NCBI GenBank assembly: GCA_032718475.1
Contig: JAUCBJ010007269.1
Location: 1 to 51,232, forward strand
Length of the DNA: 51,232 nt
Origin: Nemertoderma westbladi
Taxonomy: Eukaryota > Animalia > Xenacoelomorpha
Direction of reading: 5' to 3'
Shown piece by piece: positions 9,901 to 44,739 of this stretch (position 1 is its first letter; each line of letters begins with the position of its first letter). Made by a program: the position numbers and the translations under genes. Under the pieces are notes generated by a model. The model was not told where the DNA came from and ran no database searches. It saw only the letters and a list, made by a program, of their open reading frames with translations.

Positions 9901-10065
9901 ACAGAACACAGAAACACTATATACGATATCCCACGTGAGGTACCAAATAACATACACTAACTACCTACAAAGTACTGACTGGGTGAGAATTGCTGCCAAA
10001 AAATTATAATAGTAGAGGATTTCTTCGTGTCCTCTACTATATTAGCAAATATTTTCAATAAAATA

Positions 10066-11265
10066 TGTTCGCGCTTTTGAAGACCTTTAGCAGTTTAACC
10101 TGCCAAAATTTATATGTCTTTTAGTTAATTAAAACACCTTTAGCATACGACAATATTTTATGCTAATAAACAAAACATTACCCGAAGTCAGCCCATGCGC
10201 GATCATTCACCCGATGGATCTACACCCGGGAGGCTGAATTCGGCTGCTTAAATTTTATTATTGCAGTGTAAGGTTGCAGTGTAAACTTACTGTATTATTC
10301 GATTGATCGTTATTAATTAATTTCTGACAGATATTATTGGCTTTCGGGAAATATTAACAGTTCCTTTAGGACGTGGCGCTCTATCTATTTAAACAGGGCT
10401 AGGACTTATACCAAACGCAACGATACTGCTTATGATTAAAGTATAAGGCGCATTCTTTAGGAAATGCTTTGTTACCAATCACAATCATGCACACTATTCT
10501 GCCGACCGTCAGTAAATTTGATCACACATAAAGAGAGCAACAATTGACTCATGTAGGGTCTGCTAAATAACATTAGATTCAATACACACCACATTAATAT
10601 AAATCGCAATTGTTATATATAGCCCGTCTCTCTAACCTGTAGTGTATCAAGAAAATTGGGAATTTTGGGTGATTTATCCGTATTCTCCAAAGAGCAATAT
10701 TTCCATCAACAAATAGATACAATTAATAACTGACGGTAAATAACAGTACAAACAATATGATTAATAGTGAGTTAATTAGATCAGATAAGATTGATTGATT
10801 AGTTGATTAGATAACAGTTTATACTTTCGATAATTTAAGCAGTTTTACTAGAGTTCTTCCCAAAAAGCCGGTGTTATGGCGAAAATGGGAACACAACAAC
10901 AGAATCATATAAAATCATATGACTACTAGCTATACGAGGATACCAACTACCCTTATTCCACAAAGCTCCCGTTCAACACAGAGGATGAGCAGTGAGATAG
11001 GAAATTCAGTTCAGTAGCTCTGGGATAGGTCGAAATCAACGCCCACTCAAATTCTATTGGCCGATACGGACAGCAGGGCTTAGGCAACCTCCCTAGGCTG
11101 GTTGGCCGATTAAACTGAGCCCAGATACCTCCGTACAGCACATCAGCCAATAAGCTGGTAGCTTGCACTATTTTACCTATAGCTCCCTTTTAGAGTATTC
11201 TAGCGACCGGGGGGGAACTGGCCAGCAAAGGCAAACGTATCAGTTATCCCACAAAAGCTTTTACA
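10066..11265 (-). repeat. 3' LTR of element A (1200 bp)
   Basis: On the minus strand it starts TGTAAAAGCTTTT and ends AAAGCGCGAACA, the same termini as the LTRs of element B. The 3' half aligns with the element B LTR (e.g. AGCGCCACGTCCTAAAGGAACTGTTAATATT). AATAAA at about 10254-10259. Confidence 0.9.
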
Positions 11266-11273
11266 CCGCTCCC
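11266..11273 (-). promoter_or_regulatory. Polypurine tract of element A (GGGAGCGG)
   Basis: Immediately 5' of the 3' LTR; identical to 44732-44739 in element B. Confidence 0.8.
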
Positions 11274-11343
11274 AGAAAATGGGATTTAAGTCTATAAAAT
11301 ATACAAAATCACAGTTTCTAAAATATAAAAATACTCTAAACAG

Positions 11344-13119
11344 TTAGTCTTTCTTGCGCGGACGGCGTTTACGCAGTTTTTTAAAGCTAGCAAGAGTCCT
11401 TTTCTCTTTGGGGCGAGCCACTTTACGAGGAGGGCTATAACTCCTGGGTGAAGGGTGCAATATGATTGCATCAGAAGGTATGGGATTACGATCGGTATAT
11501 CCGCCGGTCGAAGTACCGGGTTGATTGACATCAACGTCCGGGGAGAGGGGTCTAACGGCTTTGAGAGCTCGTTTCAAGACAGCCGCTCTTACGGGTCCTG
11601 TACGAGTGGTCTGCACGAGGGCCGTGGGTGGACCATAGGTAGTTAGAAACTTCCTTGGTTTAATGGTTCTTTCCAACTCGCGTTCGCGGGCTCGGTACTC
11701 GTAAGGCCGTCGATATACTTCTTGTAACTCAGGGTGTGAGTTGACGAATAAGTCTCCATAGGCAGGGTCTTGACGGATAAAGTTTATTAAGTTGTAAGAA
11801 TGGATGTCACTCGGATTAATGCTCCTGAGAAATTTGCGTACATATTTGGTTGAAATACATTCTCCAACGCGCTTCAGTAGTTCATAACTTGATAGGCGTG
11901 ATTTTTGTTCGACGGAGGCAAACAAATAAGGATGGAACGCATAAACTCCTTCGTAAGCGCGTCCAGGGTAATAGCGATGGCGTGAATCACAATGTAAATC
12001 AGCGTTCGCTTCCCAAGCTCTGATATAACGTAGTACAATCATTTCATCTACGCTCTCTAAATCATGATTAAAGGGACAATCAAAGCTGGCGTGTCCTTTT
12101 AATTGACAATGATGGCATTGAGTCATAAATTGGGGGCAGACAGCAAAAATGTGCAAATTATTAAGCCGACAATATGCACAATAGATTTCCATCGACGGTT
12201 GCTCGTGGAAATAGGAACAGAGATCGTTGGTGTCCATAGACGTAATATGGTCTCTCGATGCGCACAGCCGACAACGTTGTCGAGAAACATAATTGGCGTG
12301 GCGATAATCATACGCAGTAAGACACTGTGGACCTTGATACCATTCCAATATATAGTCGCTATCGCTACTCCGAGACGTGGGGGGCTGAATCTCTTCAGAT
12401 TCTAAACATATGGGTTCGTCTTCCCCTTGTATAGTTGAGGTAGGCATGGCCGTCTCCTCAAGTGGACCTATCGTCTGAATTTCCACGACAGAATAACCTG
12501 TGGGGATCCGAGGTCTTTGGATAACCGAGGAGTGCAGGTTTATTATACAAATGTCTTTGAAAATAGCGAATCCAGCGCTATCTAACTTCTCCGCAGCCGA
12601 GTCTCTTAAGCTGAGCTTGGTCAAAGCGCGGTCTTTGAATTGGCTATCCACGTTGCGAAACGGGGTTAAAAACCGTCGGAAACATTCAAAGCGGATGAAT
12701 TTATTATGTTCATCTAGCTTAGCGAGTTTGGTCCCAAGCATTAATGGATGGGCGCGTATAGTGCGACTGCACACATCGGCTAGCCAACCGGAAAGTGCGG
12801 CGTTTTCGAAGATCGTGTAGATAGCTAAGGAGGGACGGAGTGGAACACTCATGAAGCTATACACGGCGCCAGGTGCGGTCAACGGTCCGTCAAAGTATAA
12901 TCGAGAATAATGGTCTCCGTATACTTGTTGATAGTTGATGGGATTTCCGACCTTGAAATTCCACCCGTATTCCTGAAAGGCAAGATGTCCGATGGAAGTT
13001 TGTTGCACCTTTGTAATGTTGCTAGACGCATTAGCATACATGGTGCGAAAGAAACCTCGGCCTTCTGCCCAGGGAACAATCAGCTGAGTATCCACGAAAG
13101 GGTATGGAGTGTTCTCCAT
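11344..13119 (-). CDS. Accessory ORF3 of element A, 591 aa; three CCHC-like zinc knuckles and a basic C-terminal NLS-like tail
   Basis: Long uninterrupted ORF with CRLCASRDH(x9)C, CAYCRLNNLHIFAVC and CHHCQLKGHASFDC (canonical CX2CX4HX4C). C-terminus SPRSYSPPRK...KKLRKRRPRKKD. No signal peptide or TM segment. The C-terminal ~50 aa are conserved in element B (44504-44661). Confidence 0.85.
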   Translation of the reverse strand: MENTPYPFVDTQLIVPWAEGRGFFRTMYANASSNITKVQQTSIGHLAFQEYGWNFKVGNPINYQQVYGDHYSRLYFDGPLTAPGAVYSFMSVPLRPSLAIYTIFENAALSGWLADVCSRTIRAHPLMLGTKLAKLDEHNKFIRFECFRRFLTPFRNVDSQFKDRALTKLSLRDSAAEKLDSAGFAIFKDICIINLHSSVIQRPRIPTGYSVVEIQTIGPLEETAMPTSTIQGEDEPICLESEEIQPPTSRSSDSDYILEWYQGPQCLTAYDYRHANYVSRQRCRLCASRDHITSMDTNDLCSYFHEQPSMEIYCAYCRLNNLHIFAVCPQFMTQCHHCQLKGHASFDCPFNHDLESVDEMIVLRYIRAWEANADLHCDSRHRYYPGRAYEGVYAFHPYLFASVEQKSRLSSYELLKRVGECISTKYVRKFLRSINPSDIHSYNLINFIRQDPAYGDLFVNSHPELQEVYRRPYEYRARERELERTIKPRKFLTTYGPPTALVQTTRTGPVRAAVLKRALKAVRPLSPDVDVNQPGTSTGGYTDRNPIPSDAIILHPSPRSYSPPRKVARPKEKRTLASFKKLRKRRPRKKD

Positions 13120-13823
13120 ATTCCTGTTGCACGCCTAACATGTTTTCCGCCATCGATGGGAGAGGGCAAGGAAAACCTATGACACATTCAACAAGGTTTA
13201 AAATACGATCTCAGTAGGAGGATTATGTCATTCGAAGATTATCTCCAAATTAATTTATCCCCAATTATTAAGGGAGGTGAACAACCAGATTTATGACACA
13301 CAATGGTACCAGTTGTTCACAGACTAGCCGCGTATCCTTTTAGTCCTTGTATCGGGTTGTGGACCTAAGGAAATTATCGGTGGTTGATTATGTAATCAAC
13401 GACAAAGAGATGGGCGTTGATATTATAAATACCAACACAATGGTATATGGACAGGAGGTGCGGACACGAATATAGGCATCCAGATAAACAGTAAAGGGTG
13501 GGGAGATTTATTAGGAAGCGGTATGATTCATACCACGATACCACTATGATTGGTCGATCGATGAAGGGAGTAAAGAGGAGGAAGGAGATATGGCAGTATC
13601 CATAAGACACCACAATGGACATGTTTTCCGTTACCCCATCATTCATTACTGCTTTACTAATATTAATTACTAATTACTATTACTGCATTACTGCTTACTG
13701 TGACACTGATCACAATAATTACAGGAAAACGATGAAGGAAGAGAAAGTTACAGCCTCCCGAAGGAGACCGCCCGCGAGCACCCGTGCCCCGGGGAAAACT
13801 ATTCACATTATGGACCCTAGACA

Positions 13824-14453
13824 TCAACTCATGTCTCTTCTCCAGTGGTTCCCTTCTATTAGTTCAAAGCTATCCGAGACAACAGATAGTGGACGATCTG
13901 CGGTAAGATACATCATGGTGAAATAGAGTCGTTTGAGTTCTACCATGGGATCGTGATGTATACCTTGAGGATATCGAGTCTCTAGGTTCTGTTGACTGGC
14001 AATATTGAGATAGGTTTCTCTCAAAAATTCCAAGTAGTCGTTGAAGTTGATACGCTTATCGGGTTCTTCAACGTTTTCTCTGTCGAGTAGGTTGCGAATA
14101 GAGTTCTCGTGTTCTATTCTCGGTTTATCATTACGATTCCGCTGGGCATGATATTTAAATAAAACCATTTCCCTTTCGGTGTCTACATCATCAGTATCAT
14201 GTAAATCGGTAGGATGGCCGGTAGTTAAGAAGTCCATATACGTACCATTACGATTCGTATAGCGAGCGGTGAATTTTCTATAGTCCGATTCACGCGTAAG
14301 TTGTTCCTGGGACATCGGCGGTTCGATATAACGACCATCGTCCTCCGTAATAGTTGGATCGGCTTCACCGCGTATCAAGCTATCCACAAACGCTTGTAAA
14401 GGTAGAGTATATCGCTCTCTAATACCAAAGTCATCTTCTATCAATTCCGTCAT
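13824..14453 (-). CDS. Accessory ORF2 of element A, 209 aa acidic soluble protein of unknown function
   Basis: Open ORF. The homologue in element B (from 43331) shows many third-codon-position differences (e.g. CCG/CCA, CAG/CAA, GAA/GAG, CTT/CTC in RYIEPPMSQEQL), indicating past purifying selection on the protein. Confidence 0.8.
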   Translation of the reverse strand: MTELIEDDFGIRERYTLPLQAFVDSLIRGEADPTITEDDGRYIEPPMSQEQLTRESDYRKFTARYTNRNGTYMDFLTTGHPTDLHDTDDVDTEREMVLFKYHAQRNRNDKPRIEHENSIRNLLDRENVEEPDKRINFNDYLEFLRETYLNIASQQNLETRYPQGIHHDPMVELKRLYFTMMYLTADRPLSVVSDSFELIEGNHWRRDMS

Positions 14454-14496
14454 ATCTGCTATCTGAGTTTATTAATATCAATATGAGTTAATATTT

Positions 14497-14639
14497 TAGG
14501 CAAGCGGGCGTCGCTGCCTACTAGGCTTTGCCCCCGGACAGTGGGTTTCTCAGTGCCGATGTACCGCTGTCGCAGTGTTTACGCCAACATGTAGCAACAG
14601 CACGACAACGATAACTGGCACAAGTCCCACCACTGTCCG
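14497..14639 (-). other. Predicted long RNA stem-loop plus short hairpin just upstream of ORF2 (element A)
   Basis: Closing stem CGGACAGTGG/CCACTGTCCG (14535-14544 with 14630-14639), inner stems GTGCC/GGCAC and CGTTGTCG/CGACAGCG, then hairpin AGGCAGCG...CGCTTGCCT. The same fold, with compensatory changes, is at 43141-43285. Confidence 0.7.
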
Positions 14640-15264
14640 TCCCAAAGGCTTGAATCCACTTGAGGTTATCTCGGTAGAGTTAGGGCTACTTTACAATTGC
14701 GATTAGCTACTGTAAACACACTTTAGTAGTAACATTCACCTATAAACGCACAAATTCCATACAATCATTACTTACTGCACACATGCATGCCATTTGTCCG
14801 TTAGTCAGTGTCTTCCAGAATGTCACGTTATTACTATGTATCCTTGGATACTAATAATGCGCTATGTATACTCTTATGCTACGCAATGGGGCAAGCTTTT
14901 ATTGTTCCTTTAACTTGCTTCTAATTCTAGCGTGGGTGTTGCCATGGTGACATTATGGAAAACTAGCGGTAGAATTAGGGTAATTCTCATGCATACAGAT
15001 CTGGGATGTTATTTAATAGTAATTCTTTAATTGTCAATATCCTCTTTATGCATGATTTTATAAATTTTATCGGCTATTGACTATATATTGGAGATTCTCG
15101 CACTCTAGTACACTCAATATGAATCTCCGCTCCCATGATCTATTAATTACTGGAATTTTGGGAATGTTATAAATTGCACAAAATGACAATTTATGAAATT
15201 CATTTGAATATGAATTTAAATTTATTCCCGTGAATTTTATTATTTGATGTTAAATTGACACAAA

Positions 15265-15556
15265 TTTTATTCCAGAGCATGTCTGGGAACTCAGGATCCT
15301 TAATTCTATAAAATCGTCCTTTTAAGAATATCGGTAAATACTGCGATATTTTAATTGACTAGAAATTTTAAAGGATCGGAATTTTACAGATTTTAATAAA
15401 TATTAAATTAATATTTAGGATGGGCACCGATTTATTCCAGAACTTGTCTGGGGACGTTAACCAATGATTCTAGAATTTGTCTTTCAAGTATATCGGTGGG
15501 TGCCACGATATCTTAATCGACTAGAATTACAGATGGTCAAAAAGTTTAACAGATTT
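15265..15556 (-). repeat. Two diverged ~125-bp direct repeats with hairpin potential in the 3' non-coding region of element A
   Basis: Each has the form AATCTGT..TTCTAGTC.ATTAA.ATATCG-N10-CGATAT.CTT.AA..GAC...TAGAAT...CCCAGACA.G.TCTGGAATAAA. Counterparts at about 42197-42322 and 42376-42505. Confidence 0.7.
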
Positions 15557-16073
15557 ATTTGCGATTTACGCTACTGTTAGAGGGACATCACGCTACTATA
15601 TGTATTATTTGTTATAAGGTAGAAGAGCAATATCGCACGAAGCAATGTCAGTGTGAAGAGGCAAGTCGTTTCCAAGGTCTACCCAGAGCTTGGTTTAGCC
15701 GAGACACGAGGATCTGAACTTTGCATTCCTAATACTCTGCCTACCAATAATACTTAAATATAGTAGTGGCTTTATTGTACTTTAAGAAGTACGGACATTT
15801 CATCTTACTGTAGTCACGTATTTATAATATGATACGGACAGTAAGGGAAGAGAAAATAATTATTTCTCGCCATCGCACTAAATATATATTATAGTAATTA
15901 TGTACGTAATAAACACTAATATATTGCACTAATCTACTAAATAATCCCTAAAATAACATTCTACTAAATAAAAATTGAATAAAAACGATTATAATAAAGT
16001 ACATAATAACATTTACATATAAAATGCAATAAAAACAGATAAATAATATAGACATACACCCACTCCAGACGTA

Positions 16074-19000
16074 CTACGTTGAAGAGCCCCTAGATGTTTG
16101 AGGTATTAGGGAGGTGGTCGTGGGAAGGGTTTCTTGCCTTCCATAGTTTCCAGAGAGTTCTCTGTCTCTTTCCAGTAAACATAAACGACCAACTGGGCGA
16201 TTGAGTTGTTGCGTCTCAAAGATTATGCCAGGCTTCTTGAAGTTACGCCGCATAACGATGAGTTCTACTGAACGCACTAAACCATCCTCCGAGATATGAG
16301 TCTCGATGATACGACCTGTCTGCCACCGTTTACGTGGGAGGTCTTGATCTACAATAAGTACCATATCTCCGGCGCTGACGTTTTCCTGCTGCGCAAACCA
16401 CTTAGTTCGAAGTTGTAGCGTGGGCAGGTTATGTCTCTCGAAATGGTCAGCGAAACGACGGGATAGCAACTGCATAAGTTGCCAAGTTCGACGGCAGTAT
16501 TCGTCTCCGTCGACAATCTCCGATCGTGGGAGCATGGCTACCGGTTTCTTCAGTAGGAAGTGCGCAGGTGTCAGCGCTTCCAGGGAATCGGGACTCGATG
16601 AGACTGGCATAAGCGGTCTCTCGTTGAGATAGGCAGCTATTTCCTCCATTAACGTCCGCAAAAGTTCGTCGGTGAGATACGCACGGCACGGCACTATAAA
16701 GTGAAATGCGGTCTTAACACTTCGAATTAATCTCTCCCAACTTCCTCCCCACCAAGGGGCGTCGGCGGCGTTGAAGGTCCAGCTAGACGCTGTTATCCTT
16801 AGCTGGTCATCCACCTGTCTTTGGTTCCAGTCCTTTACGTAAGCTTGTATTTCGTTGTTGGCACCAATGAAGTTCGTTCCCTTGTCCGATCTCATGGTAT
16901 TACTCGTACCGAAGCGAGCGATCTGTCGTCGTAAACTTAAGACGAAACTGTTGGTAGATAGATCGTTCACCATATCGAGATGGATGGCTCTGCAAGTCAT
17001 GCACACGAAGATGACACACCATCTCTTGACTATAGTCCTCGCACGATATACTTCAATAGGGCCAAATAAATCTACACCAGTATTAGTAAAAGGTGGTTCA
17101 TAGAAGCTTACTCGTTCCCTAGGTAATTCTGCCTCTCGCTGTGTTAAAGGCCTACTGAATGCTTTCCTACAGGGTATGCAGTTCCTAAGAACTTGGTTCA
17201 GAGCCCTACGGGGTTTATCAAAATAATAGCGAGTTCGAATTTCGCTAAGAACTCGTTCTCTTCCAGCATGATAAAGCTTACTGTGAACATCTACAATCAT
17301 CTTGATTTGTACTTCAAGATTTCTAATGAGTATGGGGAATTTAGTGTCAAAGGATAAGGGTGCATTGGTTAACCTTCCTCCAACACGTATTAATCCATCT
17401 ATCATTGTGCTAGAGAATCGATCCCTTAAGCGCATCTGCGGATTTCTCAACAACAGGAAATACTTTTCGGAATCCTCATAGCATTGCAGGAGTCTCAGTA
17501 TCTGTTTATTAGTCTCTTCATGCTCCTGGTGACTAATTTTCTCCTTTAGAAAACTGTCAGACACTTTGTATTTAGGTAAGTTTTTAATAACATGAACTTG
17601 CGCAGATGTCAATGGAGCGTTATCACTAGTGGTCTTCGCCCTGGAGTATTGATGATGAAAGCATCTCTTTAAATATGTGACGGCTTTACAGAGCCGATTC
17701 CAGGAACTGTAGTGATGCATCGCTCTCTGCAGCAGGGGTGAGATTCCTTGCGAGACGTCTGGTATTCCAGATTTCCAATCTCTATCTCGAATTTCCGCAA
17801 CAGATTTATTTATAGCGAGGGATTGTGGATCTAAACCATCGTTTCCGGAAACATGTAATACAGATAGATCGATAGTCGGTTTAAATAACTTCGATTTACT
17901 CGCCCGGGTTTTAGGTTTAACGGTCTCCGCTCCCTTGGCTTGTCTAATTTCCGCCGTAGTAAGGTGAGGAGGCCATTCGTCCTCTTCCTTGCTCAGGAAG
18001 TCGGGTCCACCCAACCAATCTGGAGTATCTATCAGTTCCTGTGGAGTTGCTCCCCTGGAGGCGATATCGGCTGGATTAATCGTACCAGGGCAATGTCTCC
18101 ATTGATCTATCTTTGTGCGACTAAGAATAATAGCTACCCTATTAGTAACAAAAACGCTGAACTGACAGACCTCATTGGTTAGATACTCCAACACGAGTAA
18201 AGCGTCGGTCCAATAAACCGTTTTCTCCAGTGGGTAATCGATTTGTTCCGTTACGTTCCGGCCGATGGCTGTAGCGTATAAAGCCGCTTTTAACTCCGCT
18301 CGAGGAACCTTTAACTTGTTGTTAATCAGTGCCTTAGAGGTAACCAAGGCGACTTTGATCCCATCCGGAGTTTCGACTCGCAGATATGCTACTATACCTA
18401 TTCCCATGTCGCTGGCGTCTCCAAACACATGGAGTTGATAGGAATACGTCGGAAGAACATGTCCAAAATATGCACGGGAAATTATAAAGTTCTCGATGGC
18501 AGGTAGAGAATCTTCCCATTTCATCCATTTCTTCAACAGTTCTCCCTTAAGCGGATCATCCCACGAGTGGTTTTCAAGCCACATCTGTTGTACTAAACTC
18601 CGAGCAATCAATATAACTGGGCTAATAAATCCCAATGGGTCGAAATAAGTGCTCAGGATACTTAAACAAATCCGTTTGGTCCGGACTGGATTATCTCGCT
18701 GTTTTAACTGAAAAAACAGGATGTCTCTTTCAGTGTCCCACTTCAAGCCTAGCGTCTTGGTTTCAGGAAGATCGTCTTTTATTAAGTCTAGGTCTTTCGC
18801 TCCGCGATCCTCTACCGGTATGGCTTCCAGAAACTCACGGGAGTTACTAGTGAATTTCGTCAGTCGAAATCCCCCTCTTTTCAAACACTCTACCGTTCCT
18901 TTCGCGACAGCTATGGCTTCTTCTACTGATGGAAGGGACCTTAAATTGTCGTCCATGTATATATTGCGTTTTATGTTGTCTATCACTTCTTTGGAGAAGG

Positions 19001-22000
19001 AGTCTCGGTTGTCATTCGCAGTGGTTCGCACCACGGAGCAGGCGTTGGAAGGGCTAGATATGATCCCAAAAGCCTGGATGGTCATCCAGTACTCCACCGG
19101 TTTCTGGTTGAGGTCTCCTTCAGGCCACCACAGAAATCTCAGGCTGTCTCTATCTCTCTCCAGCGCCTTGACTTGTAAGAACATTCCTTCGATATCGGAA
19201 GCGAACGCGATGGAATATTGTCTTATTCTCAAAAGTATTCCCAACAAAGATTGGAGTAAATTGGGTCCTGGTAACAACTCGGAATTAAGGGATTGGCCCA
19301 TATATAGAGCAGAGCCATCGAATACGACTCGTACTTCATGGGGTTTACCGGGTTTGGGAACGTAATGATGTGTTAGATAATAAGTTCTTTCAGTTATTGG
19401 AGTTCCTTCCGGTACTTGCTCCGCATATCCCTTTGTGATAAATTTCTTCAACTGAGTTTGGTACATTTCCTTAGCTGAAGCGTTTGCCGTAAGACGTCGA
19501 TGTAATTGATTGATTCTTTTCTCAGCCAAGGGTCTGTTATTTATAAATCTGGGTTCACGTTTTCGGAAGGGTAGTCCGATTTCATATCGACCTTGATCTT
19601 TTAAAAAACGTGTGGTTGTTTCCTGGATTTGCTTGGCTCTTTCTTCTTCTATCGACAGGGCTTTGTTGTATGAATTGGGTTCTACTAATTCTTGGGTAAA
19701 GAATCGTACGGCTAGTTCGTCCCGAGTTCTAGCGTTGTAGCGCTCTACCTCGTCATTAAGTTCGTCATTATAAATAATGGATTCCGTTGGGCGAATCAGT
19801 TGACATAGGTTCGTTTGGTTTTTCCAAGTTTGATTCTCTGTAAGTAGGTCAATTGTGTTCTCTTCTTCGAAGAGTTGGTAGATGTCGTCATTATCTGAGG
19901 AGTATGGTGTTCCCTCAGTTAGTTCGTCCACCTCACTGCTTTCCACTTCCCCATCGTTTACTTGATATATTTGTTCGTGTGGCATTCTCTCTTCGAGAGT
20001 TCTACGGGAAGGGCCAGTAAAGTACCAACCTACTCTAGTTCTTACCGCATAAGTTTGCAGTGGTTGTGGTTGAGCAGGCCGTTTCTCTAATGTTTCGAGC
20101 GCCTCGTGCGCGTTTTGGCCGATAAGTATTTGCACTCCAGGATAATCTGTCTGGAATCGAGGTATCTTAAGATGTTGGACGCTCTCATCTTCGTCCCAAT
20201 TATAAAGGTCTGCTTGAGTAGTAGCAAAGTTCTTTATAGCCACCATTTTTACTGACCTTATACCTTGTGTTCCTAACTTATCCTGGGGGGTGGACAACAC
20301 ACCTACATAGTAATCTGCCGTTAGGGTAGATTTCCAAACCTGCATAATTCCTGACATATTCAATTTAGTCCGGAACTTGGGTTGTCCAGCAAAGATATCT
20401 TCGGCTAGTTCTTGATCGATGAATGTTCCTGTGCTGCCGGAGTCCAGGAGGGCGTTCACTATGTAGCTTTTGTCAATACCGTGAACTCTTACCTGAACTA
20501 CAGGAAATTCTCTGATTCCTACGTTGGAAGCTGGAGCTTTCCAAGATGGTTGTTTGGCGAAAGTAGTTTGGGGAAACTCATCGTTGATGTCCTTTTCGTA
20601 AGTAAGTGCTCGATACACTGCGGTATTGATTAGATAACAGGATTCGTTGGCGTCGGAGAATTCGTCAGTATAGAATCCTTCCATCTCAGACTCCTGATCA
20701 GTGTCATTTACGTCACTAAATTGGACATGTAGTTCGGGCTCACTTACCTGACTCTGTTTGTCTCGTTCGAACTCACTGTGTAACAAGATGTGATGTTTCG
20801 CGCCACACTTTGCACACTTTATGTCTGAGTAACAGGTTCGCCGTTGGTGTCCTGGTCTGAGGCAATTATAGCATAACCGCTTGTCCCACACAACTGTACG
20901 TCTATCTACAAGGGATTTCTTTAGAAATTCAGCACACGCACTCAAACGGTGTGTCCCGTCGCACAGCGCACAGTTAGGTTTTATGTTACTCACCTTACCT
21001 TGGGTAACTTGATGCACTCTCGTTTTTTCATCGGGTTTTCTTCGGTGCATTCTGTTAGGAGACTGAGGAGGGGTCTTGGCAACCTGTTCTCTCCTATCGT
21101 TGTTTCGAGCCTTATATTTACTTACATCTTTTGAGGTTTTGTCAACATAGTAAGATCGGTCTGTGTCTTTCCCGCTGTCCTCTTCTTGGGAAGCCTGGCT
21201 TTCGCCGTCGTCAGTGTAACACACCGGTGTTACTCTTCTCCTAGAAGTGGGTTTCTCACTTACCTTATTTTCCGATGTTTCCTCTCTGGACTGATTGATG
21301 AGTTGTAGTTTGACTTCACCATCTAAGAAAGACATGAGATCAGCCATGGTAGGACTTCGTCGTTGTTGTTCATTCATGTACAACACTTTCTTGTCCCAGC
21401 GTGTACATACTCCACCCTTTGGTAAAGTAGAGACTACGGCTCCAATAACCATGGAACTCTGATATTCATGCGACTTACCTAACCAGTCCAGTTGTCTACA
21501 GATCTCTTGAATTTCATCGGAAAACTCTATAATCCCACTACTAAGGAAGTGTCGGGGGGCTACTAATTTTGCATACAAATACTTAGCTATGTTATCCTTG
21601 TTACCATACCTGATGTTTAATGTATCCCAAACTTGTCTTAATCCTTCTGGATGTCCAATAAACTTTAACGCCATTAACTTGGGAGGTCCTTCCAAGCACT
21701 TGATGAGGAATCTAAGTTTCTCTCCGTTAGATAGTACAGAGTTCTGTATGCTATCTTTGTAATATTCGTTGAAAGGTAACCATTTCATCTCATCTCCATT
21801 GAATTTGACGATCTCTCCCACTTTGACCGCTTGGCGGGCTTCTGTTCTAGCCATCTGACGCATAAAGCTTTCTTGGGCCATCGTGTTATTTAATATCGAA
21901 TTATCGGTATACAAATTTCTCGGATCATTATCAGGTCTATAGGGAATATCATTAATAACAGGTCTATAATCACCCTTAATAGGGTTTGCTATAGGAGTTT

Positions 22001-24107
22001 CAACTTCACTAGCAGTATAGATGCGTGCAGGCTCCACACCTTGCGCATGTAATACTTCAGACCTAACAGGTTGACACAATGTTACAGGGGGTATTGGTAT
22101 GCCCTTTTGGATATTGACTAATTTGTCGCGTTCTAGTGCGATACTTTGCTGCACTTCTTGCAACTCCGCTCTACCTTCCCTCACTGTTCCCTTAAGTTGG
22201 TGGACAGTCTCCTGCATCTGTCCTAGCAGGAGATTCATCCCCCGCCGCCCCTCTTCCACCCACTCAACCGCCGAAGCGGGAGTCGCCAACATAGTAGCGG
22301 GCTGACGCGGGACGACGGGAGACAAATTTTTGATTTCTCTCTCTGCTATCTGGACAGGGATATTCTCTTGGACTGCTCCACCGGGTACAGGCAATGTAGT
22401 ACTATGTAAAGGGAATTTAGAGTTAAGCTCTGGAAGTACAGGGGTCTCTAACACAGAAGTGACTTTGGGAACGACAGGCCTAATTATCTCAGGCTCATCA
22501 ACTATTGTAGAGAGTCTTTGGACCTTAATACTTTGGGCTGTAGGTTCTATACTACTCAAGTCTGTGCTAGCTAGCTGTCTTCTAACAGCTGGGGGCAAAT
22601 CAGGCAATTTGCGACGGTAAGATGTTTTTCTACGCCTACTTAGATGAGATCTATTTCCTCCGCCTTCAGGATCGGTAGTCTCGCCTTCCTCCGAGGACGT
22701 GTATCCCTGGCGCTTGGGAGTAGATTTTCTCATCATCTGCATTTGATTAGCAGTAAACTGTTTATTTATGCTATCTTGCGCCTCTTGCAGATTTTCCAAC
22801 TCTAGTTGGATAGTCTCCTCAGACGCTCTCCGTTCTGCTTCTGCCACTGTTGCTTTTCTTTCGGCTTCCGCCGCTTTTCTTTCTGCTTCTGCTTCTGCCG
22901 CTTTTGCTTTTCTTTCGGCTTCTGCTTCTGCCGCTTTTGCTTTTCTTTCGGCTTCTGCTTCTTTTCTTTCTGCTTCTGCTTCCGCCGCCGCTGCTGCTGC
23001 TACCTTCCTTTTCTCTATCCGTTCTTTCTTTACTTGATCTTCTCGGACTCTAGTGAGGCGGAGTTGTTCATCACATTCAGCTTGGTTTGCAGCTAACATT
23101 TCGGCATCGATTGAGTCCAACACAAGCTTGGTTCCTTCACTATTAGGGGAAAGCCCAGACAGCCGTCTCCTCAACTCTTCGTCTCCTAGGAATCGCTGAT
23201 AGTCGGACAAATAAATGTCGATAGCGTCTCTAGTTCGCGGCTTCTCGGCGGTCTCTTTGCTTTCCGCTTGAGAAAGGGTGACATCAGTTGGTTCTTCATA
23301 GGTTGATCTCTCAGCTAGCTGGGATTTCCACTGGGCCGTTTCCTGTACTTTGAGATCTACCCTATGTAACCAAGTTTTGACAGCAACCTGCAGCGACGTG
23401 TCTTGTCTTCTTTTGGAAGTTTCCTCAAAGGCTGAGAGGATTAGTCGTATGCGTAGGGTTCTTTCGCGTATTTGGTATAGCAGCTCTTCCTGCTCTTGAG
23501 GTCCTTGAGGTTGTCGAAACAGTTGTTCTTCCAATCGCTCCAAGGAGCCGAAGAATCCCTGCACATATCCTGATGCCGACCTCTTCCAAACAGCTGGATC
23601 CATTGTATCTTGTGCCACTCCCATCCTGTGTATATCATCCCAAGTAGCCTCGGACAGGTCCAACGGGAGTCCGAGTCCGGGAAAGTTCCATTGTGACTCG
23701 ACAATAGACATTAATTCTTCCCTGGCGTATCCCGCATAATTATCTCGGGTCGCTCGCTTATTCCTCGCCCAGTCGGCTTGATGTTCCTCCACCGCAATGA
23801 ATATAGTAGTTAGCACTGCAGCAGGAAGGGTAAGAAGGGGGTCCGAGTAGACTGTAACAGCCATCTGCCCTCCGCGTTCGGGGGTCAGCTCTACAGTATC
23901 CGAACTGCTAGAGCTATCGGGTCGCTGGGAAGTAGGTTCTTGACCAAGATGTTGCTGCGATGGGACAACTGCCTCTTGGTTCCGTTTGACCTGTGCCCGA
24001 GTGCCTATGATGGACCTATGGTGGATTAGCCTAGGGTCTGATACTACTGGAGGGATGACCTTTTTTGCAGTAGGAGGTGAGCTGAACTCCTTTCTTAATC
24101 GCTCCAC
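16074..24107 (-). CDS. Bel/Pao Gag-Pol polyprotein, 2677 aa (Gag, protease, RT, RNase H, integrase)
   Basis: Three Gag Cys/His motifs (CALCDGTHRLSAC, CYNCLRPGHQRRTC, CAKCGAKHHILLH); protease ALLDSGS; RT SDIEGMFLQV, RFLWW, YMDD; RNase H LHVFGDAS, PRAEL, WTD, NPADIASRG; integrase HHCC plus GVDLFGP, SDKGTNF, WERLIRSVK. True start uncertain (the track uses a GTG; the first ATG is about codon 82). Confidence 0.96.
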   Translation of the reverse strand: MERLRKEFSSPPTAKKVIPPVVSDPRLIHHRSIIGTRAQVKRNQEAVVPSQQHLGQEPTSQRPDSSSSSDTVELTPERGGQMAVTVYSDPLLTLPAAVLTTIFIAVEEHQADWARNKRATRDNYAGYAREELMSIVESQWNFPGLGLPLDLSEATWDDIHRMGVAQDTMDPAVWKRSASGYVQGFFGSLERLEEQLFRQPQGPQEQEELLYQIRERTLRIRLILSAFEETSKRRQDTSLQVAVKTWLHRVDLKVQETAQWKSQLAERSTYEEPTDVTLSQAESKETAEKPRTRDAIDIYLSDYQRFLGDEELRRRLSGLSPNSEGTKLVLDSIDAEMLAANQAECDEQLRLTRVREDQVKKERIEKRKVAAAAAAEAEAERKEAEAERKAKAAEAEAERKAKAAEAEAERKAAEAERKATVAEAERRASEETIQLELENLQEAQDSINKQFTANQMQMMRKSTPKRQGYTSSEEGETTDPEGGGNRSHLSRRRKTSYRRKLPDLPPAVRRQLASTDLSSIEPTAQSIKVQRLSTIVDEPEIIRPVVPKVTSVLETPVLPELNSKFPLHSTTLPVPGGAVQENIPVQIAEREIKNLSPVVPRQPATMLATPASAVEWVEEGRRGMNLLLGQMQETVHQLKGTVREGRAELQEVQQSIALERDKLVNIQKGIPIPPVTLCQPVRSEVLHAQGVEPARIYTASEVETPIANPIKGDYRPVINDIPYRPDNDPRNLYTDNSILNNTMAQESFMRQMARTEARQAVKVGEIVKFNGDEMKWLPFNEYYKDSIQNSVLSNGEKLRFLIKCLEGPPKLMALKFIGHPEGLRQVWDTLNIRYGNKDNIAKYLYAKLVAPRHFLSSGIIEFSDEIQEICRQLDWLGKSHEYQSSMVIGAVVSTLPKGGVCTRWDKKVLYMNEQQRRSPTMADLMSFLDGEVKLQLINQSREETSENKVSEKPTSRRRVTPVCYTDDGESQASQEEDSGKDTDRSYYVDKTSKDVSKYKARNNDRREQVAKTPPQSPNRMHRRKPDEKTRVHQVTQGKVSNIKPNCALCDGTHRLSACAEFLKKSLVDRRTVVWDKRLCYNCLRPGHQRRTCYSDIKCAKCGAKHHILLHSEFERDKQSQVSEPELHVQFSDVNDTDQESEMEGFYTDEFSDANESCYLINTAVYRALTYEKDINDEFPQTTFAKQPSWKAPASNVGIREFPVVQVRVHGIDKSYIVNALLDSGSTGTFIDQELAEDIFAGQPKFRTKLNMSGIMQVWKSTLTADYYVGVLSTPQDKLGTQGIRSVKMVAIKNFATTQADLYNWDEDESVQHLKIPRFQTDYPGVQILIGQNAHEALETLEKRPAQPQPLQTYAVRTRVGWYFTGPSRRTLEERMPHEQIYQVNDGEVESSEVDELTEGTPYSSDNDDIYQLFEEENTIDLLTENQTWKNQTNLCQLIRPTESIIYNDELNDEVERYNARTRDELAVRFFTQELVEPNSYNKALSIEEERAKQIQETTTRFLKDQGRYEIGLPFRKREPRFINNRPLAEKRINQLHRRLTANASAKEMYQTQLKKFITKGYAEQVPEGTPITERTYYLTHHYVPKPGKPHEVRVVFDGSALYMGQSLNSELLPGPNLLQSLLGILLRIRQYSIAFASDIEGMFLQVKALERDRDSLRFLWWPEGDLNQKPVEYWMTIQAFGIISSPSNACSVVRTTANDNRDSFSKEVIDNIKRNIYMDDNLRSLPSVEEAIAVAKGTVECLKRGGFRLTKFTSNSREFLEAIPVEDRGAKDLDLIKDDLPETKTLGLKWDTERDILFFQLKQRDNPVRTKRICLSILSTYFDPLGFISPVILIARSLVQQMWLENHSWDDPLKGELLKKWMKWEDSLPAIENFIISRAYFGHVLPTYSYQLHVFGDASDMGIGIVAYLRVETPDGIKVALVTSKALINNKLKVPRAELKAALYATAIGRNVTEQIDYPLEKTVYWTDALLVLEYLTNEVCQFSVFVTNRVAIILSRTKIDQWRHCPGTINPADIASRGATPQELIDTPDWLGGPDFLSKEEDEWPPHLTTAEIRQAKGAETVKPKTRASKSKLFKPTIDLSVLHVSGNDGLDPQSLAINKSVAEIRDRDWKSGIPDVSQGISPLLQRAMHHYSSWNRLCKAVTYLKRCFHHQYSRAKTTSDNAPLTSAQVHVIKNLPKYKVSDSFLKEKISHQEHEETNKQILRLLQCYEDSEKYFLLLRNPQMRLRDRFSSTMIDGLIRVGGRLTNAPLSFDTKFPILIRNLEVQIKMIVDVHSKLYHAGRERVLSEIRTRYYFDKPRRALNQVLRNCIPCRKAFSRPLTQREAELPRERVSFYEPPFTNTGVDLFGPIEVYRARTIVKRWCVIFVCMTCRAIHLDMVNDLSTNSFVLSLRRQIARFGTSNTMRSDKGTNFIGANNEIQAYVKDWNQRQVDDQLRITASSWTFNAADAPWWGGSWERLIRSVKTAFHFIVPCRAYLTDELLRTLMEEIAAYLNERPLMPVSSSPDSLEALTPAHFLLKKPVAMLPRSEIVDGDEYCRRTWQLMQLLSRRFADHFERHNLPTLQLRTKWFAQQENVSAGDMVLIVDQDLPRKRWQTGRIIETHISEDGLVRSVELIVMRRNFKKPGIIFETQQLNRPVGRLCLLERDRELSGNYGRQETLPTTTSLIPQTSRGSST

Positions 24108-24114
24108 ACTCCTC

Positions 24115-27730: not shown

Positions 27731-27796
27731 CTGAAAATGAAACAAAATTAAACATCAAGTAACGTCTATTGATTAGATGTCTAGTACATTATAAGA

Positions 27797-34242: not shown

Positions 34243-35473
34243 TGTAAAAGCTTTTACTGAATTGTCCGGTTATTTTTCCTTATTTTTCCCGTAAAGTACT
34301 CTGTAGTTGGTTTACCAGGCATAAAAAGGCCGTGTCCTTGCTGTACTGGTGTTTTAGCGGACATAAGAGCTATTTCTTCTGTATTTGTACTTTAGAGGAC
34401 ATAATCCGTAATTCCGTGACGTAAAAGCTCGATACTCTTGAAAACAGTGTCGCTACCATGACGACGGCTAGCAGCTGATATTGCCACGTCCACCTTTCTT
34501 TGTTTCTCTGTTCTCTCGTTGTTCATGTTGACCAATCAGAGCGTTTGTGATCTCTGTGTTGGAGGTATATACAGAAACTCAGTAGTTCAGTGTTATGTTT
34601 TTGTCCAGAGCCTAAGAACCGGCTTTGGCACCTCCGTGTTTTAGTTTTTAGTCTTACACTAGTAGGTTTAATTATAAAGGGCATATATCCTTTAACGCAC
34701 CTACCTGACTCATGGAATCACTGCATACTGATGACTGATGTCTGTATACTGCAGTACTGCATACACTGCATACTGTGTAACATTGTGCATACCTTTATAT
34801 TGTTATACTGCTATTAACCGTCAGTTCTTCATAATATGGTTGATGAATAATTATATTTGGAATAACGATAAACAACCCCGAAACCCAATATTCTTGATAT
34901 ACCGAAGGTAAGAGAGAAGGGTTACAGATAAACGATTGTGACTTATGTTAAAGTGGTTTGAAGTGAATCTAATGTTATTTGATAGACCCTACATGAGTCA
35001 GTCTGTGTTCCTTTTATATGTGACTAAAATCAGTGAAGATTGGCAGATTAGTGTGCAGTATTGTGCAGCATTGTGTATGAGTGAGTCTGTTAAAGAAGCA
35101 ATTCCTAAAGAATGCGCCATATATGTGAATTATAATTAAGCCATATCGTTGTGAGTAGTTTAAGTCATAACTCTGTTTATATAGATAAAGCGCCACGTCC
35201 TAAAGGAACTGTTAATATTACCGAAGGTGAATAATATTGTCAGAGATTATATAATACTGTCAGTCGAATAATACATTAGGCTTACATAGCAATACAAATT
35301 AAACCGTCGAACCCAATCTCCCGGGAATATCCAGCGGGTGAATGGTCGCGCACGGATTGGTTTCGACTAGTGTAGTGAATCAAATACTTGTCATAGACTA
35401 AAAAGCAGATTTATTATCTAGAAGACATTCTAATTTGGCGGGTTAAACTGCCAAAGGTCTGAAAGCGCGAACA
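34243..35473 (+). repeat. 5' LTR of element B
   Basis: TGTAAAAGC...GCGCGAACA. Only two differences from the 3' LTR were seen by eye (CCACGTCCACC vs CCACGTCGACG). CCAAT at about 34532, TATATA at 34566, TCAGT at 34579 and 34587. Confidence 0.97.
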
Positions 35474-35744
35474 TTAAAGGATATTGCTTCTTTATTGCAG
35501 TAAGCAATAAAGTCGAAAGTACCGGTCGACCGGTAACCAGTAGGCCTGACTGCCTGATCATCCGGACCGGTACCTACAGCAGTATTATTCGATTTTGATA
35601 ATTATATACCGGTAGGCCTTAATAATTAATCAGGGAGGGCCCGCCCTGGTTTTTTATTGAGTTTTTACTTATTTCTGTCAAGTTTTATTTATTTGTAGGC
35701 CAGTATTGAACAGAAGGCGTGTAAACCTGATCAGATTGTACAGA

Positions 35745-36312
35745 CAATTTGTAGGCTGAGCTGTTGTCTGATTGCTGTTAAGTCCGAACGAATTGCAGTG
35801 TGTGTAGAGCACTTGTCCGATTAAGTACGGTTAGGAAGTAGGGGCAGCCACGCTGTAAGGTAAACCCCCAACTAAAGAATAAGTCGCACTACTGGGTTAG
35901 AGCGCATACTCCCTAATCATTTCGGAGTCTGCATGTCCTGTATTTTATTTAGGCTTGAGAGTAGTCTGCCATCGTTTAGTCTGTACTTTGTTTGTGTAAG
36001 TCTGTACGGGTAGCGTATAATTTTATTTAGATAATTTGTAGGCTGGATAGTTGTCTGGCTGTTATTAAGTCTGAGCGGATTGCCGCGTGTGTAGATCATC
36101 TGTCCGATTAAGTACGATTAGGCAGTAGGGGCAGCAACGCTGTAAGGTAAACCCCCAACTAAAGAATAAGTCGCACTACTGGGTTAGAGCGCATACTCCC
36201 TAATCATTTCGGAGTCTGCATATACCGTAGTTTGTTTAGGCTTGATAGTAGTCTGTCAGTGTTCGGTCTGTATTTTATTTGAGTAGTTTGTACGCGTAGC
36301 GTAATATTTATT
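35745..36312 (+). repeat. 287-bp tandem duplication in the 5' leader of element B with a nearly invariant core
   Basis: Copies start at about 35751 and 36038. The ~95-nt core GTAGGGGCAGC.ACGCTGTAAGG...CATTTCGGAGTCTGCAT is essentially identical while the flanks are diverged. Confidence 0.9.
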
Positions 36313-37632
36313 ATTCAGAGTTTATGCGATTATTCGCAACATTCATTCCCTAAGTTTGTTCCTACAGTAATTGTGTTTGTTATACATACCGTTATAGTTA
36401 AATTAACCCCGGTACTATACGGGCTGCTCGGCGTAGGTAAAGACTGGTGATTTTGTGCATCGGTCACTCCAGCAGATGCCGTGGTTCTTTTAGCTGTTCA
36501 AGTATATTTAACTACTGATTATTTGTTGTACAAGTACTCGTACCTAATTTAGGGTTTAGTGTACAGTGCTTTCCCGAAGTAATTATTGTAGCCATTATAT
36601 TTGTGTTGTAAAGTGGTTGATAGGCACATTCGATTAGCTCTATTAACTTCTAGGTAGGAACACTCCGTGATACATAACGTAGAACCTATAGCGATACGGC
36701 TATAGGTCGTCAGGCGGTGGTATTTTCCTATCTAGACAACGCAGTGTATTTGCTACTACTTATTATTTCAAATACCGTAGTACCCTGTCCGCTGTAATAA
36801 TCAGTTTTCTAACCCTTTGTTAGGCTGGTTTGTAGACTTCTTGTAAAATTACCCTAAAAATTCGTATTTTGTGTTTTTTTGTAAATTTTTGTGTTTATTT
36901 AGAGATTGTAATCTCACCCGAATTGTACGTAATTTGTAGTATTAAGTAACTTAGGTAAATTAGAATTATTTGTTTTAGTGTCTCATAAGTAACACTTCAC
37001 TGAAAGCGCACCGCTTTGTGTAGTGATTACTCCCCAGAAATAATAACATTTATTTCAAACATTGGCAAAACCCATTAAAACGGGTATATATAAATTATAA
37101 ATCAAATCTAACGATTTATAAATAGTAGGCCTACCATATAACAATTAGGTCTCAATATCAGTTGGATTACTGCTCAAATAACGGTAATAAAGTAAGTAAA
37201 GTAACAAAGTAACCCTAAAGTAACAGAAATTCAATTATTTGAAATAATTGATATACCGGTATTTACGATAGGCCTATTATCTTTATTTCTATAAATCTAG
37301 GCTGAAATTGTACCGGTACTTGTAATTAATTCTATTTCAGAATTATATATCCTACAAACTGTAAGCTGTATACCGGTATTCCGATAGGCCTATTATATAT
37401 TTATATATATTTGTGCTAAAATTATACCGGTGTTCTGTGATAAACCTGGTCTGTAATAATACTTATATAGTTATATATACTATAAGCATACCGGTATTCT
37501 AATATATTATATATATCACGCTACACTGAGTAGCAGTACCGATAATTAATTACTAGGCTATCAGTTAATACTGAGTTACTAGACTTGCTCAGACTGTAAT
37601 ACAGCAGTAGACATTCAACTGTACACACAAAC

Positions 37633-40600
37633 ATGTCTGACGCAAAGCAGAACCTGTCAGACAGTCTACTAGATACAACGGAGAGTGAAGCGACAGCAGA
37701 GAAACCGCATAAGAGGGATGCCATTGATATCTATCTGTCAGACTATCAGCGTTTTGTGGGAGATGAAGAGTTGAGGAGAAGACTAGAGGGACTTAGCCCT
37801 AATAGCGAAGGAGCCAAACTTGTGTTAGATGCGATTGATGTGGATAGGTTAGCGGCGAACCAAGCTAAATTCGATGAACAACTCCGCATCGCTAGAGAAA
37901 GGGAAGAACAAGTAAAGAAAAAACGCATAGAAGACAGAAAGAAAGCAGCAGTGGTAGCTGCAGAAGCAGAAAGAAAGGCGGCAGCGGCCAAGGCAAAAGC
38001 AGCAGAGGCAGCGGCAGAGGCAAAAGCGGCAGAGGCAGAGGCAGAGGCAGCGGCAGAGGCAAAAGTGGCAGAAGCAGAACGGAAAGCGGCTGAAGAAACC
38101 ACCCAATTAGAATTGGAAAACATTCAGGAGAATCAAGACTGCATAAATAAACAGTTAACAGCTAGTAATATGCAGATGATGAATCGATCTACTCCTAAAC
38201 GACAAGGTTATACATCATCCGAGGAAGGCGATACCACCGACACTGAAGGCGGAGTAAATCGATCCCGCTTAAGCAGACGTAAAAGAACATTCCACCGACC
38301 GAAATTGCCTGATTTGCCTCCAGCTGTTAGAAGGCAACTAAATAACAACAACTTAGAGAGTACAGAACCCACAGACCAAATAATTACAATAGAAAGACTC
38401 CCTACTATAGTAGATGAGCCTGAAATAATTAGGCCTGTTCTTGAAATCACCCCTTCGGTGATAGACATACCTGTGCTCCCTGAAACTACCTCTAAATTCC
38501 CTCTGCATAGCACTAAGCTACCTGTGCCCCGCAGAACTGCCCAGGAGACAGTTCAGGTCCTGGACCCCGAGCGAAATATTCACAATTTGTCGCCCGTTGT
38601 CCCTCGTCCGCCCGCTACGACGTTGGCGGATCCCGTTTCGGCGGTTGATTGGGTAGACGAGAGACGGCGGGGGATGGATATCCTGCTCGGGCAGATGCAG
38701 GAGACTGTCCAGCAATTCAAGGGCACAGTAAGGGAAAGTAGGCTAGAGTTGCAAGAAGTGCAACAAAGTATCGCGCTTGAACGCGATAAATTAGTAAACA
38801 CCCAAAAGGGTATACCACCACCCTCTGTAACAATGTGTCAACCCGTTAGGTCTGAAGTATCTCATGCGCAAGGTGTGGAGCCTACACGCATATATACTGC
38901 TAGCGAAGTAGAAACTCCTATAGTGAACCCTATTAAGGGTAATTATAGACCTGTTGATAATGACATTCCCTATAGACCTGATCATAATCCGAGAAATTTA
39001 TATACCGATAACTCGATATTAAATAACACGATGGCCCAAGAAAGTTTTACGCGTCAAATGGCTAGAACCGAAGCCCGGCAAGCGGTGAAGGTGGGAGAGA
39101 TAGTCAAATTCAATGGAGATGAGATGAAATGGTTACCTTTTAATGAATATTACAAAGATAACATACAGAACTCTGTACTATCTAATGGAGAAAAACTTAG
39201 ATACCTCATCGAGTGCTTGGAAGGATCTCCCAAGTTAATGGCGTTAAAGTTTATTGGACATCCAGACGGATTAAGACAAGTTTGGGACACGCTAAACATC
39301 AGGTATGGTAATAGGACTAACATAGCTAGGTATTTATATGCGAAATTAATGGCGCCCCGAAAGTTTCTTAGCAGCGGGATTATAGAGTTTTCCGATGAGA
39401 TTCAGGAGATCTGTAGACAACTAGATTGGTTAGGTAAGTCTCATGAATACCAGAATTCTATGGTTGTAGGATCCTTAGCATCTTCTTTGCCCAAGGGTGG
39501 AGTAGGTACACGCTGGGACAAGAAGGTGTTATATATGATGGAACAACAACAACGAGACCCTACCATGGCTGATCTCATGTCATTCTTGGATGGAGAAGTG
39601 AAATTGCAACTCCTAAGGCAGTCCAGAGAGAAGACATTGGAAAACAAGGTAAGTGAGAAACCCGTTTCTAGGAGAAGGGTAATACCAGTATGTTATACCG
39701 ACGACGGTGAAAGCCAAACTTCTCAAGGAGAGGACAGCGGGAAAGACACTGACAGATCTTATGTCAATAAAATGCCTAAAGATCAGGTAAGTAAATCCAA
39801 GTCTCGACCCAATGACAGAAGGGAACCGGTACAAAAAACCCCTCCTACGTCTCCTAAAGGAATTCAGGTGAGAAAGCCCGAGGAAAGAACAAGTGTGCAC
39901 CACATAGCACAGGTTAAAGTAAGTAACATCAAGCCGAAATGTGTGCTGTGCGACGGGCCCCACCGTTTAAATGCGTGTGATAAATTCCTGAGGAAATCAC
40001 TCGAGGATAGACGTGAAGTCATGTGGGATAAGCGGTTGTGTTATAATTGCCTCAGACGAGGACACCAACGGCGAACCTGTAACTCCGACGCAAGGTGTGC
40101 AAAGTGCGGCGCAAAACATCATATCTTGTTGCACACGGAATTCGAACGAAACAGCCCGAGTCAGGTAAGTGAGTCCGAACTACATGTCCAATTCAGTGAT
40201 GTGAACGACACTGATCAATCTGAGATGGAAGGATTCTATACGGACGAGTTCTCCGACCAAAACGAATCCTGTTACCTAATAAACACCACCGCAGTGTATC
40301 GAGCACTCGTGTATGAGAAAGACACAGACAGCGACCTTACCTTAACTACTTCCGATCAACAACCATCTTGGAAAGCGCCAACTTCCAATATAGGAATCCG
40401 AGAATTTCCTGTAGTCCAGTTACGGGTCCACGGACCTCAGAAGAGCTATATAGTGAACGCCCTCCTGGACTCCGGTAGCACAGGAACATTCATCGATAGG
40501 GAACTAGCCGAAGTCATCTTTGCTGGACAACCCAAGTTCCGAACCAAGCTAAACATGTCAGGGATCATGCAAGTTTGGAATTCTACTGTAGCTGCCGACT

Positions 40601-44661: not shown

Positions 44662-44739
44662 CTGTTTAGAGTATCTTTATGTTTTAGAAACTGTGATTTT
44701 TATATTTTATAGACTGAAAATCCCATTTTCTGGGAGCGG

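Follow-up and report, generated by a model that had tools for sequence, protein, structure and literature searches.

We wanted to establish what kind of gene ORF3 is and what its product may do. ORF3 is an open reading frame of 591 aa (11344..13119, minus strand, read 13119->11344) in a stretch of 51,232 nt of Nemertoderma westbladi DNA, which was analyzed at its full length and is called the window here. An earlier note, made from the letters alone, described three tandem CCHC-like knuckles, SP/RS motifs and an Arg/Lys-rich tail, and proposed a nuclear RNA-binding accessory factor, either a Rev-like exporter or an anti-silencing factor. We found that ORF3 is a real, intact orphan accessory gene of an unusually complex BEL/Pao element, which we call E1.

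ORF3 as the final gene of a long BEL/Pao element

The 591-aa frame at 11344-13119 was confirmed. It lies on the minus strand and is intact, and the chance probability of 591 open codons at this composition is 1.5e-13. The plus-strand frame across the same positions is full of stops.

E1 is read on the minus strand and carries an intact BEL/Pao gag-pol ORF of 2596 aa (16074..23864), in which Pfam detected DUF1759, Peptidase_A17, Integrase_H2C2 and DUF5641 above the cut-off. It is followed by a noncoding region of 1.6 kb, ORF2, a spacer of 704 nt, ORF3, a stretch of 78 nt that contains a short polypurine tract, and the 3' LTR (10066..11265, minus strand, TG...CA, 1200 nt). The tract (11266..11273, minus strand) stands directly before the 3' LTR, and the same was seen in E2, a second, related copy in the window. 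ORF3 occupies the env position, 78 nt before the 3' LTR. No match to a 5' LTR of E1 was found within the window.

E1 resembles Belpaoviridae in its single gag-pol ORF, in DUF1759 of Gag (7.6e-12 in Pfam), in three Cys/His knuckles of Gag, all intact, and in the PR-RT-RH-IN order with the Pao-type Peptidase_A17 and DUF5641. Gag scored 71.5 bits on a BEL nucleocapsid profile. The TG...CA LTRs of 1.2 kb in E1 and E2 and the 5-bp target duplication of E2 fit the same family. BEL/Pao elements are described as 4.2-10 kb long, with gag, pol and sometimes env (PMC8742986), and the available text of PMC3118150 gives size and gene content likewise. Unlike described Belpaoviridae, E1 measures 13.8 kb without its 5' end, has 4.8 kb after pol and sits on a long branch. 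Its RT-RNase H was 37-44% identical to the best 120 matches, of which the named ones are proteins of echinoderms, cnidarians, molluscs, nemerteans, amphioxus and fish. The host animal accordingly has no close representative in the collections searched. The E1 branch was long (2.09) among 40 relatives in a tree made by a quick method from 41 rows (E1 with 18 named and 22 unnamed of the 120 matches) and no clade references.

We compared the region after pol with 78 related loci from metagenome contigs. In 27 of them a repeat delimits the 3' end 54-871 nt past the integrase, as against 4.8 kb in E1; five of the 78 run into the gag of the next copy within 579-754 nt, and the remaining 46 were uninformative. 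In none of the 32 informative relatives was an extra ORF of at least 120 aa present in this interval. The long ORFs that follow pol in L021, L030, L037, L057 and L066 were rejected as candidates, being the gag of the next copy. In L044 an ORF of 179 aa (5413-5949) follows a truncated integrase, and our impression of this ORF is that of an unrelated gene from a DNA transposon. Neither a zinc-knuckle extra ORF nor gag splicing was reported for BEL/Pao in the literature searched, a scope that stopped short of Repbase and of the sequences in the supplement of PMC3118150. The products of captured ORF3s in rotifer LTR elements and of additional ORFs in plant Retand elements are GDSL esterases, DEDDy exonucleases, TM or coiled-coil proteins, or antisense TRP28, and no zinc-knuckle ORF3 appears among them in the available texts (PMC5408684, PMC11963269).

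Motifs of ORF3 and the search for relatives

We divided the ORF3 protein into regions, all encoded on the minus strand. Residues 1-220 (12460..13119) gave no Pfam match and an AlphaFold pLDDT of about 28, and residues 221-262 (12334..12459) form an acidic linker (D+E 26%). Three Cys/His motifs follow: the irregular C283-C286-H291-C301 (CX2CX4HX9C, 12217..12273), the knuckle C314-C317-H323-C328 (CX2CX5HX4C-P, 12136..12180), which aligns with the second knuckle of Air2 2lli_A, and the canonical knuckle C335-C338-H343-C348 (CX2CX4HX4C-P, 12076..12117). Residues 353-490 (11650..12063) are predicted to be helical at low confidence (pLDDT 31-57). The last 53 codons with the stop (11344..11505; E2 counterpart 44500-44661) hold SP motifs and a basic, NLS-like tail.

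The motif spacings are exactly as the earlier note wrote them, and our motif comparison agreed that they are distinct from those of the element's own Gag knuckles (CX2CX3HX4C, CX2CX4HX4C and CX2CX3HX4H). Two CX2CX4-5HX4C motifs were found in none of 20,000 residue shuffles of ORF3. The count of three CCHC knuckles is better given as two regular ones plus one doubtful, because the HX9C spacing of the first motif is non-canonical. The Arg/Lys-rich tail holds: K and R make up 25% of residues 501-591, RKRR occurs at 583, and there is a match that resembles a bipartite NLS at 573. SP/RS motifs are present as three SP and one RS dipeptide in the final 91 residues, and these do not make an RS domain. 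At the motif level only, the basic tail provides the NLS/RNA-binding feature of the Rev/CERV-like class. Six matches to a permissive NES-like pattern were obtained without a control and prove nothing.

No homologue of ORF3 was found. A phmmer search of 1.84 billion cluster representatives gave no match at E<=0.001, and a word search of 5.8 billion clusters, covering lengths 325-1035 only, gave none among 4124 candidates; the same word search with residues 275-360 gave no candidate. There was no homologue in 17 stretches of viral contigs or in 72 of metagenome contigs. No Pfam or NCBIfam family reached its cut-off; zf-CCHC_3 of Pfam scored 13.3 bits for the whole protein and 18.9 bits for residues 250-360 (cut-off 27). 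Whole ORF3 had just two chance matches in PDB (E>=1.5). AlphaFold without an alignment gave a pLDDT of 34 for whole ORF3 and 38 for residues 250-500, and a Foldseek search with the first model, which found nothing at E<=0.001, is meaningless.

Three familiar identities were considered and rejected. The largest hydropathy over 19 residues (KD) was 1.37, with no predicted signal or transmembrane segment, so ORF3 is not env; an env-like entry protein, for all that ORF3 sits where env would, is scarcely credible, as the knuckles and the basic tail point to nucleic-acid binding. A diverged or duplicated BEL Gag nucleocapsid was rejected with -6.8 and -4.0 bits on Gag and nucleocapsid profiles built from 81 of the 120 relatives. 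The knuckle segment scored 3.6 bits on the BEL nucleocapsid profile, and 387 of 1000 shuffles scored as high; tblastn hints of Gag nucleocapsid likeness in the motifs were weak (E 0.19-0.26). The earlier note had also considered a LINE ORF1 or Gag fragment from a nested insertion. We looked for a recognisable ORF1 domain, an RT gene of its own and a flanking duplication and found none: families of Pfam and NCBIfam stayed below their cut-offs, the neighbourhood contains no further long ORF, and there was no bracketing repeat (no direct repeats of at least 14 nt around the ORF3 body). The env position, the missing hydrophobic segment and an origin other than BEL Gag are consistent with the proposed nuclear nucleic-acid-binding accessory gene, as far as the sequence speaks to it.

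The best PDB look-alike was yeast Air2 (2lli_A), matched by residues 300-356 with an E of 0.0021 for the whole sequence and 0.46 for the best stretch. This segment was picked post hoc, with the resemblance to Air2 already in view, and a wider segment gave an E of 0.11. The common pattern, CX2CX5HX4CP...CX2CX4HX4CP, corresponds to the second and third knuckles of Air2. Atlas look-alikes of ORF3 were all CCHC proteins, some with AIR2-like knuckles, at scores of <=0.87, and scores below 0.9 count as leads only. ORF3 might on this basis be a decoy or mimic of nuclear RNA-surveillance factors (Air1/2-ZCCHC7) that would protect RNA of the element against decay or silencing and have no part in its export; knuckles 2-4 of Air2 bind RNA according to the available text of PMC3384339. 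ORF3 is like Air1/Air2/ZCCHC7 of TRAMP (PMC3384339, available text; PDB 2lli) in the spacing of one adjacent knuckle pair. Unlike them, it lacks the IWRxY motif, has two to three knuckles instead of the five of Air, and shows no likeness elsewhere. We regard the decoy as improbable and the Air2 resemblance as a weak lead. Of the two branches proposed earlier, the anti-silencing one would draw on this weak resemblance only.

E2, ORF2 and a conserved hairpin

E2 (34243..45970, plus strand) is a related, internally deleted copy. Between its LTRs (34243-35473 and 44740-45970) there are 2 differences in 1231 nt, and a 5-bp target duplication is present. Because the LTRs are nearly identical yet RT, RNase H and most of the integrase are missing, E2 was likely mobilised recently in trans. 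The sequence after its 5' LTR (35474-35513) does not start with TGG, unlike the usual tRNA primer-binding site, which in BEL/Pao elements is one for tRNA-Arg/Gly. Its leader of 2.1 kb holds a duplication of 287 nt (35741-36319).

E2 and E1 have in common gag-protease (81%), the 3' noncoding region (75-99%) and the first 146 codons of ORF2, which are broken in E2. The gag segments gave dN/dS of 0.11-0.24. ORF2 (13824..14453, minus strand; broken copy in E2 43331-43743) encodes an acidic protein of 209 aa and is a second orphan accessory gene, with no match in Pfam or NCBIfam. Its comparison with the broken copy gave dN/dS of 0.17-0.26 at dS of about 0.65, and on this ground ORF2 is a real gene. 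As it is under purifying selection like gag, we consider the extra region functional.

The noncoding region after pol (14454..16073, minus strand) is retained in E2 though most of pol is lost. Rfam found no family over 10000-16200, except a chance match to mir-23 (E 0.58). About 80 nt upstream of ORF2 there is a long RNA hairpin of ~107 nt (14534..14640, minus strand; E2 43141-43249). Its structure is conserved between E1 and E2. The folding z-scores were -2.96 and -5.03, and the 23 substitutions that separate the copies broke 2 of 42 pairs when 10.4 were expected (P = 5e-5); on the structure of E2, 4 of 44 pairs were broken (P = 0.0014). The hairpin region was chosen from a preceding scan. 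The surroundings of the polypurine tract showed no folding excess (z = 0.04 and -0.24).

Several other features of this region were observed. Both copies contain degenerate repeats of 160-180 nt (15020-15600, minus strand; E2 42150-42756), for which the folding z lay between -2 and -3.6. At 15646-15796, 150 nt are 99% identical between E1 and E2. The spacer between ORF2 and ORF3 contains a stable fold (13404-13553, minus strand, z = -3.98).

The last 53 codons are the only part of ORF3 that is common to E2 (81% aa identity), and the identity begins sharply at codon 539. This tail had dS of 0.18 and dN/dS of 0.55 with 17 changes, and is not clearly selected. Its dS is lower than elsewhere, which suggests recombination or a cis-acting role. 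In place of the end of ORF2 and the body of ORF3, E2 has 756 nt (43744..44499, plus strand) that are not detectably homologous to E1. We rejected these as a decayed ORF3, since 46 of 60 controls reached the frameshift-tolerant protein score and 124 of 150 the DNA score; Pfam found nothing in them. The ORF3 body is known from the E1 copy alone in this window. Likeness between the LTRs of E1 and E2 (10066-11265 vs 34243-35473) is confined to a dozen bases at the start and the final ~700 nt (71%), and does not extend to the 500 nt in the middle. This patchiness, together with a 91% patch at 11253-11506, points to mosaic subfamilies.

These observations bear on the claim that ORF3 belongs to the element. 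The claim gains from the missing signs of a nested LINE and from the tail common to E2, and is limited by a body found in one copy. The body might be a recent capture, a piece of a zinc-knuckle gene of the host or of another element that was fused to the native 3' end of the family, stays open merely owing to its youth and is of no use to E1. We consider this unlikely. Such a capture would agree with the absence of the body from E2, with the sharp start of identity at codon 539 and with the absence of a clear selection signal in ORF3. E1 is also a mosaic without a 5' LTR in the window and with a Gag N-terminus absent from E2, and LTR elements are known to take up ORFs after pol (PMC5408684 and PMC6431247, available texts). 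However, a gene captured from a host would be expected to have relatives, and the search of the 1.84 billion representatives gave none. The frame moreover crosses the junction without a break, the tail beyond it has an in-frame end in E2 too, no direct repeat of at least 14 nt lies around the body, and the decayed E2 may itself be the replaced copy. Should ORF3 be a passenger, what is left is an element of unusual length in which ORF2 is the one real extra gene.

Candidate splice sites and a proposed nuclear role

Six consensus 5' splice sites (AG|GTRAG) lie in gag of E1 (20487..21481, minus strand; E2 39434-40610), with first intron bases at 21478, 21263, 20998, 20993, 20747 and 20492. Synonymous shuffles of gag-protease gave an expectation of 0.52, and none of 1000 reached 6. 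There were no such donors in the RT-integrase part. E2 also has 6, against 0.92 expected (1/1000 shuffles), and at three orthologous places both copies have AG|GTAAGT despite dS of 0.5-0.9 there. Looser patterns were likewise in excess (GTRAGT 6 vs 1.06; GTRAG 12 vs 5.4, 3/1000). GTRAGT encodes each of the four Val-Ser dipeptides at aa 868-1040 and none of the seven others, and E2 carries GTAAGT at the same four places. The relatives were depleted in donors (13 vs 30 expected in 33 ORFs, L050 being left out as it contains N); they come from other hosts, include near-duplicates and are not independent. A donor density near that of E1 was seen in 2 of 34 relatives, L050 (4 sites), which has no extra ORF, and L064 (3 sites), whose 3' end is undefined.

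A candidate 3' splice site stands before ORF3 (13135..13175, minus strand). It consists of a tract with 17 of 18 pyrimidines (13175-13158) and a TAG (13137-13135), which is the in-frame stop where the ORF3 frame opens. Such tracts were present at 3 of 404 YAG sites in 11264-25000, at a threshold set post hoc. The candidate acceptor is in frame with the four phase-0 gag donors; given donors of both phase 0 and phase 1, chance alone makes an in-frame match of some kind nearly certain. Just before the ATG of ORF2 a TAGCAG is kept in both copies and fits a conserved phase-1 donor. The spacer holds 14 ATGs upstream of ORF3, so translation of ORF3 by scanning is disfavoured. The donor cluster might show how a BEL element with a single ORF makes separate messages for Gag or accessory proteins. 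The replication of BEL/Pao elements is described as poorly understood (PMC8742986).

Immediately behind the capsid domain (aa 868) and before the Gag knuckles there is a conserved phase-0 donor whose frame matches that of the candidate ORF3 acceptor. ORF3 could thereby be spliced onto the capsid part of Gag and, instead of exporting RNA, work in the particle, either in place of the nucleocapsid or as a subunit for nuclear import or packaging. Taken singly, the CCHC knuckles are similar to the nucleocapsids of copia and MLV (E 0.35-0.76), which would agree with such a subunit. The knuckle array, though, was at control level on the BEL nucleocapsid profile, and Gag has its own three knuckles intact. 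We hold this particle role to be quite unlikely.

The evidence is stronger for a selected ORF2, for the conserved donors and for the conserved hairpin than for a function of ORF3 of whatever kind. Our preferred reading of ORF3, to which we give somewhat less than an even chance, is that it may be a spliced, CERV-like nuclear RNA regulator that lets unspliced genomic RNA be exported. Splicing from gag would give rise to messages for ORF2 and for ORF3, possibly with a fusion to the front part of Gag. The ORF3 protein would enter the nucleus, and its zinc knuckles would bind RNA of the element. Strong donors have to stay in the full-length RNA and would lead to its nuclear retention; binding of ORF3 would license escape from retention and export of the unspliced genomic RNA. 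We infer splice-site use, nuclear entry, RNA binding, the RNA that is bound and export. The donors and the hairpin could instead serve ORF2 or a Gag-only mRNA. In Drosophila copia, donors serve a Gag-only message.

The model for this reading is Cer1 of C. elegans, a Ty3/gypsy element. According to the available text of PMC10309623, its CERV is encoded by an ORF in the env position that is spliced to gag exons, has an NLS and a Cys-rich finger, is nuclear, is presumed to be controlled by proline-directed phosphorylation and is required for export of Cer1 gRNA. RNAs with 5' splice-site motifs are kept in the nucleus of human cells (PMC9074902, available text). ORF3 differs from CERV in belonging to BEL/Pao and in having CCHC knuckles instead of a C4 loop, and E1 differs from Cer1 in its two extra ORFs and its structured 1.6-kb spacer. 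No sequence similar to CERV was matched by ORF3 among the 1.84 billion representatives, a set in which membership of CERV was not confirmed. CERV and retroviral Rev are thus working analogies, and we claim homology to neither.

A Rev/RRE-like switch might also have evolved here independently. Alternative gag donors would be joined to two orphan exons at the 3' side, ORF2 and ORF3, the zinc-knuckle product of ORF3 would bind the hairpin and so export the unspliced genome, and deleted copies like E2 would be served in trans. This more specific version is possible, though doubtful. For the Rev-like exporter proposed in the earlier note, the conserved gag donors and the hairpin of conserved structure lend indirect support. 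Rec and Rem are grouped with retroviral Rev. A basic nuclear protein, a structured cis RNA and an intron-containing genome would be the proposed likeness to retroviral Rev/RRE (HIV-1 Rev; PMC10309623, available text). Unlike Rev, ORF3 has 591 aa and zinc knuckles, and any NES, multimerisation or RNA target of ORF3 is putative.

A BEL/Pao member that has two selected or intact genes other than env, conserved donors and a structured 3' RNA would be a sign that retrovirus-like regulatory complexity also arose in this superfamily. The RNA-export trick has so far been shown for retroviruses and one worm retrotransposon, and among the matches listed CERV was the only retrotransposon-encoded export factor named in a title. 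A second, unrelated, zinc-knuckle export factor would make repeated solutions to the export of intron-containing RNA testable.

We also recorded some features beyond the 3' part of E1. The gag-pol ORF opens with ~195 aa (23271-23864, minus strand) that are absent from E2 and gave no Pfam or NCBIfam match, and an acceptor-like pyrimidine-rich site is present at 23816. Upstream of gag, where the leader and 5' LTR of E1 would be expected, there are minisatellite arrays (24114-30029) with units of 63, 61, 21 and 22 nt and a poly-C run (24504-24535). Two related short elements (30909-31900 and 46180-46824) have terminal inverted repeats, are 77-87% alike and are MITE-like by appearance.
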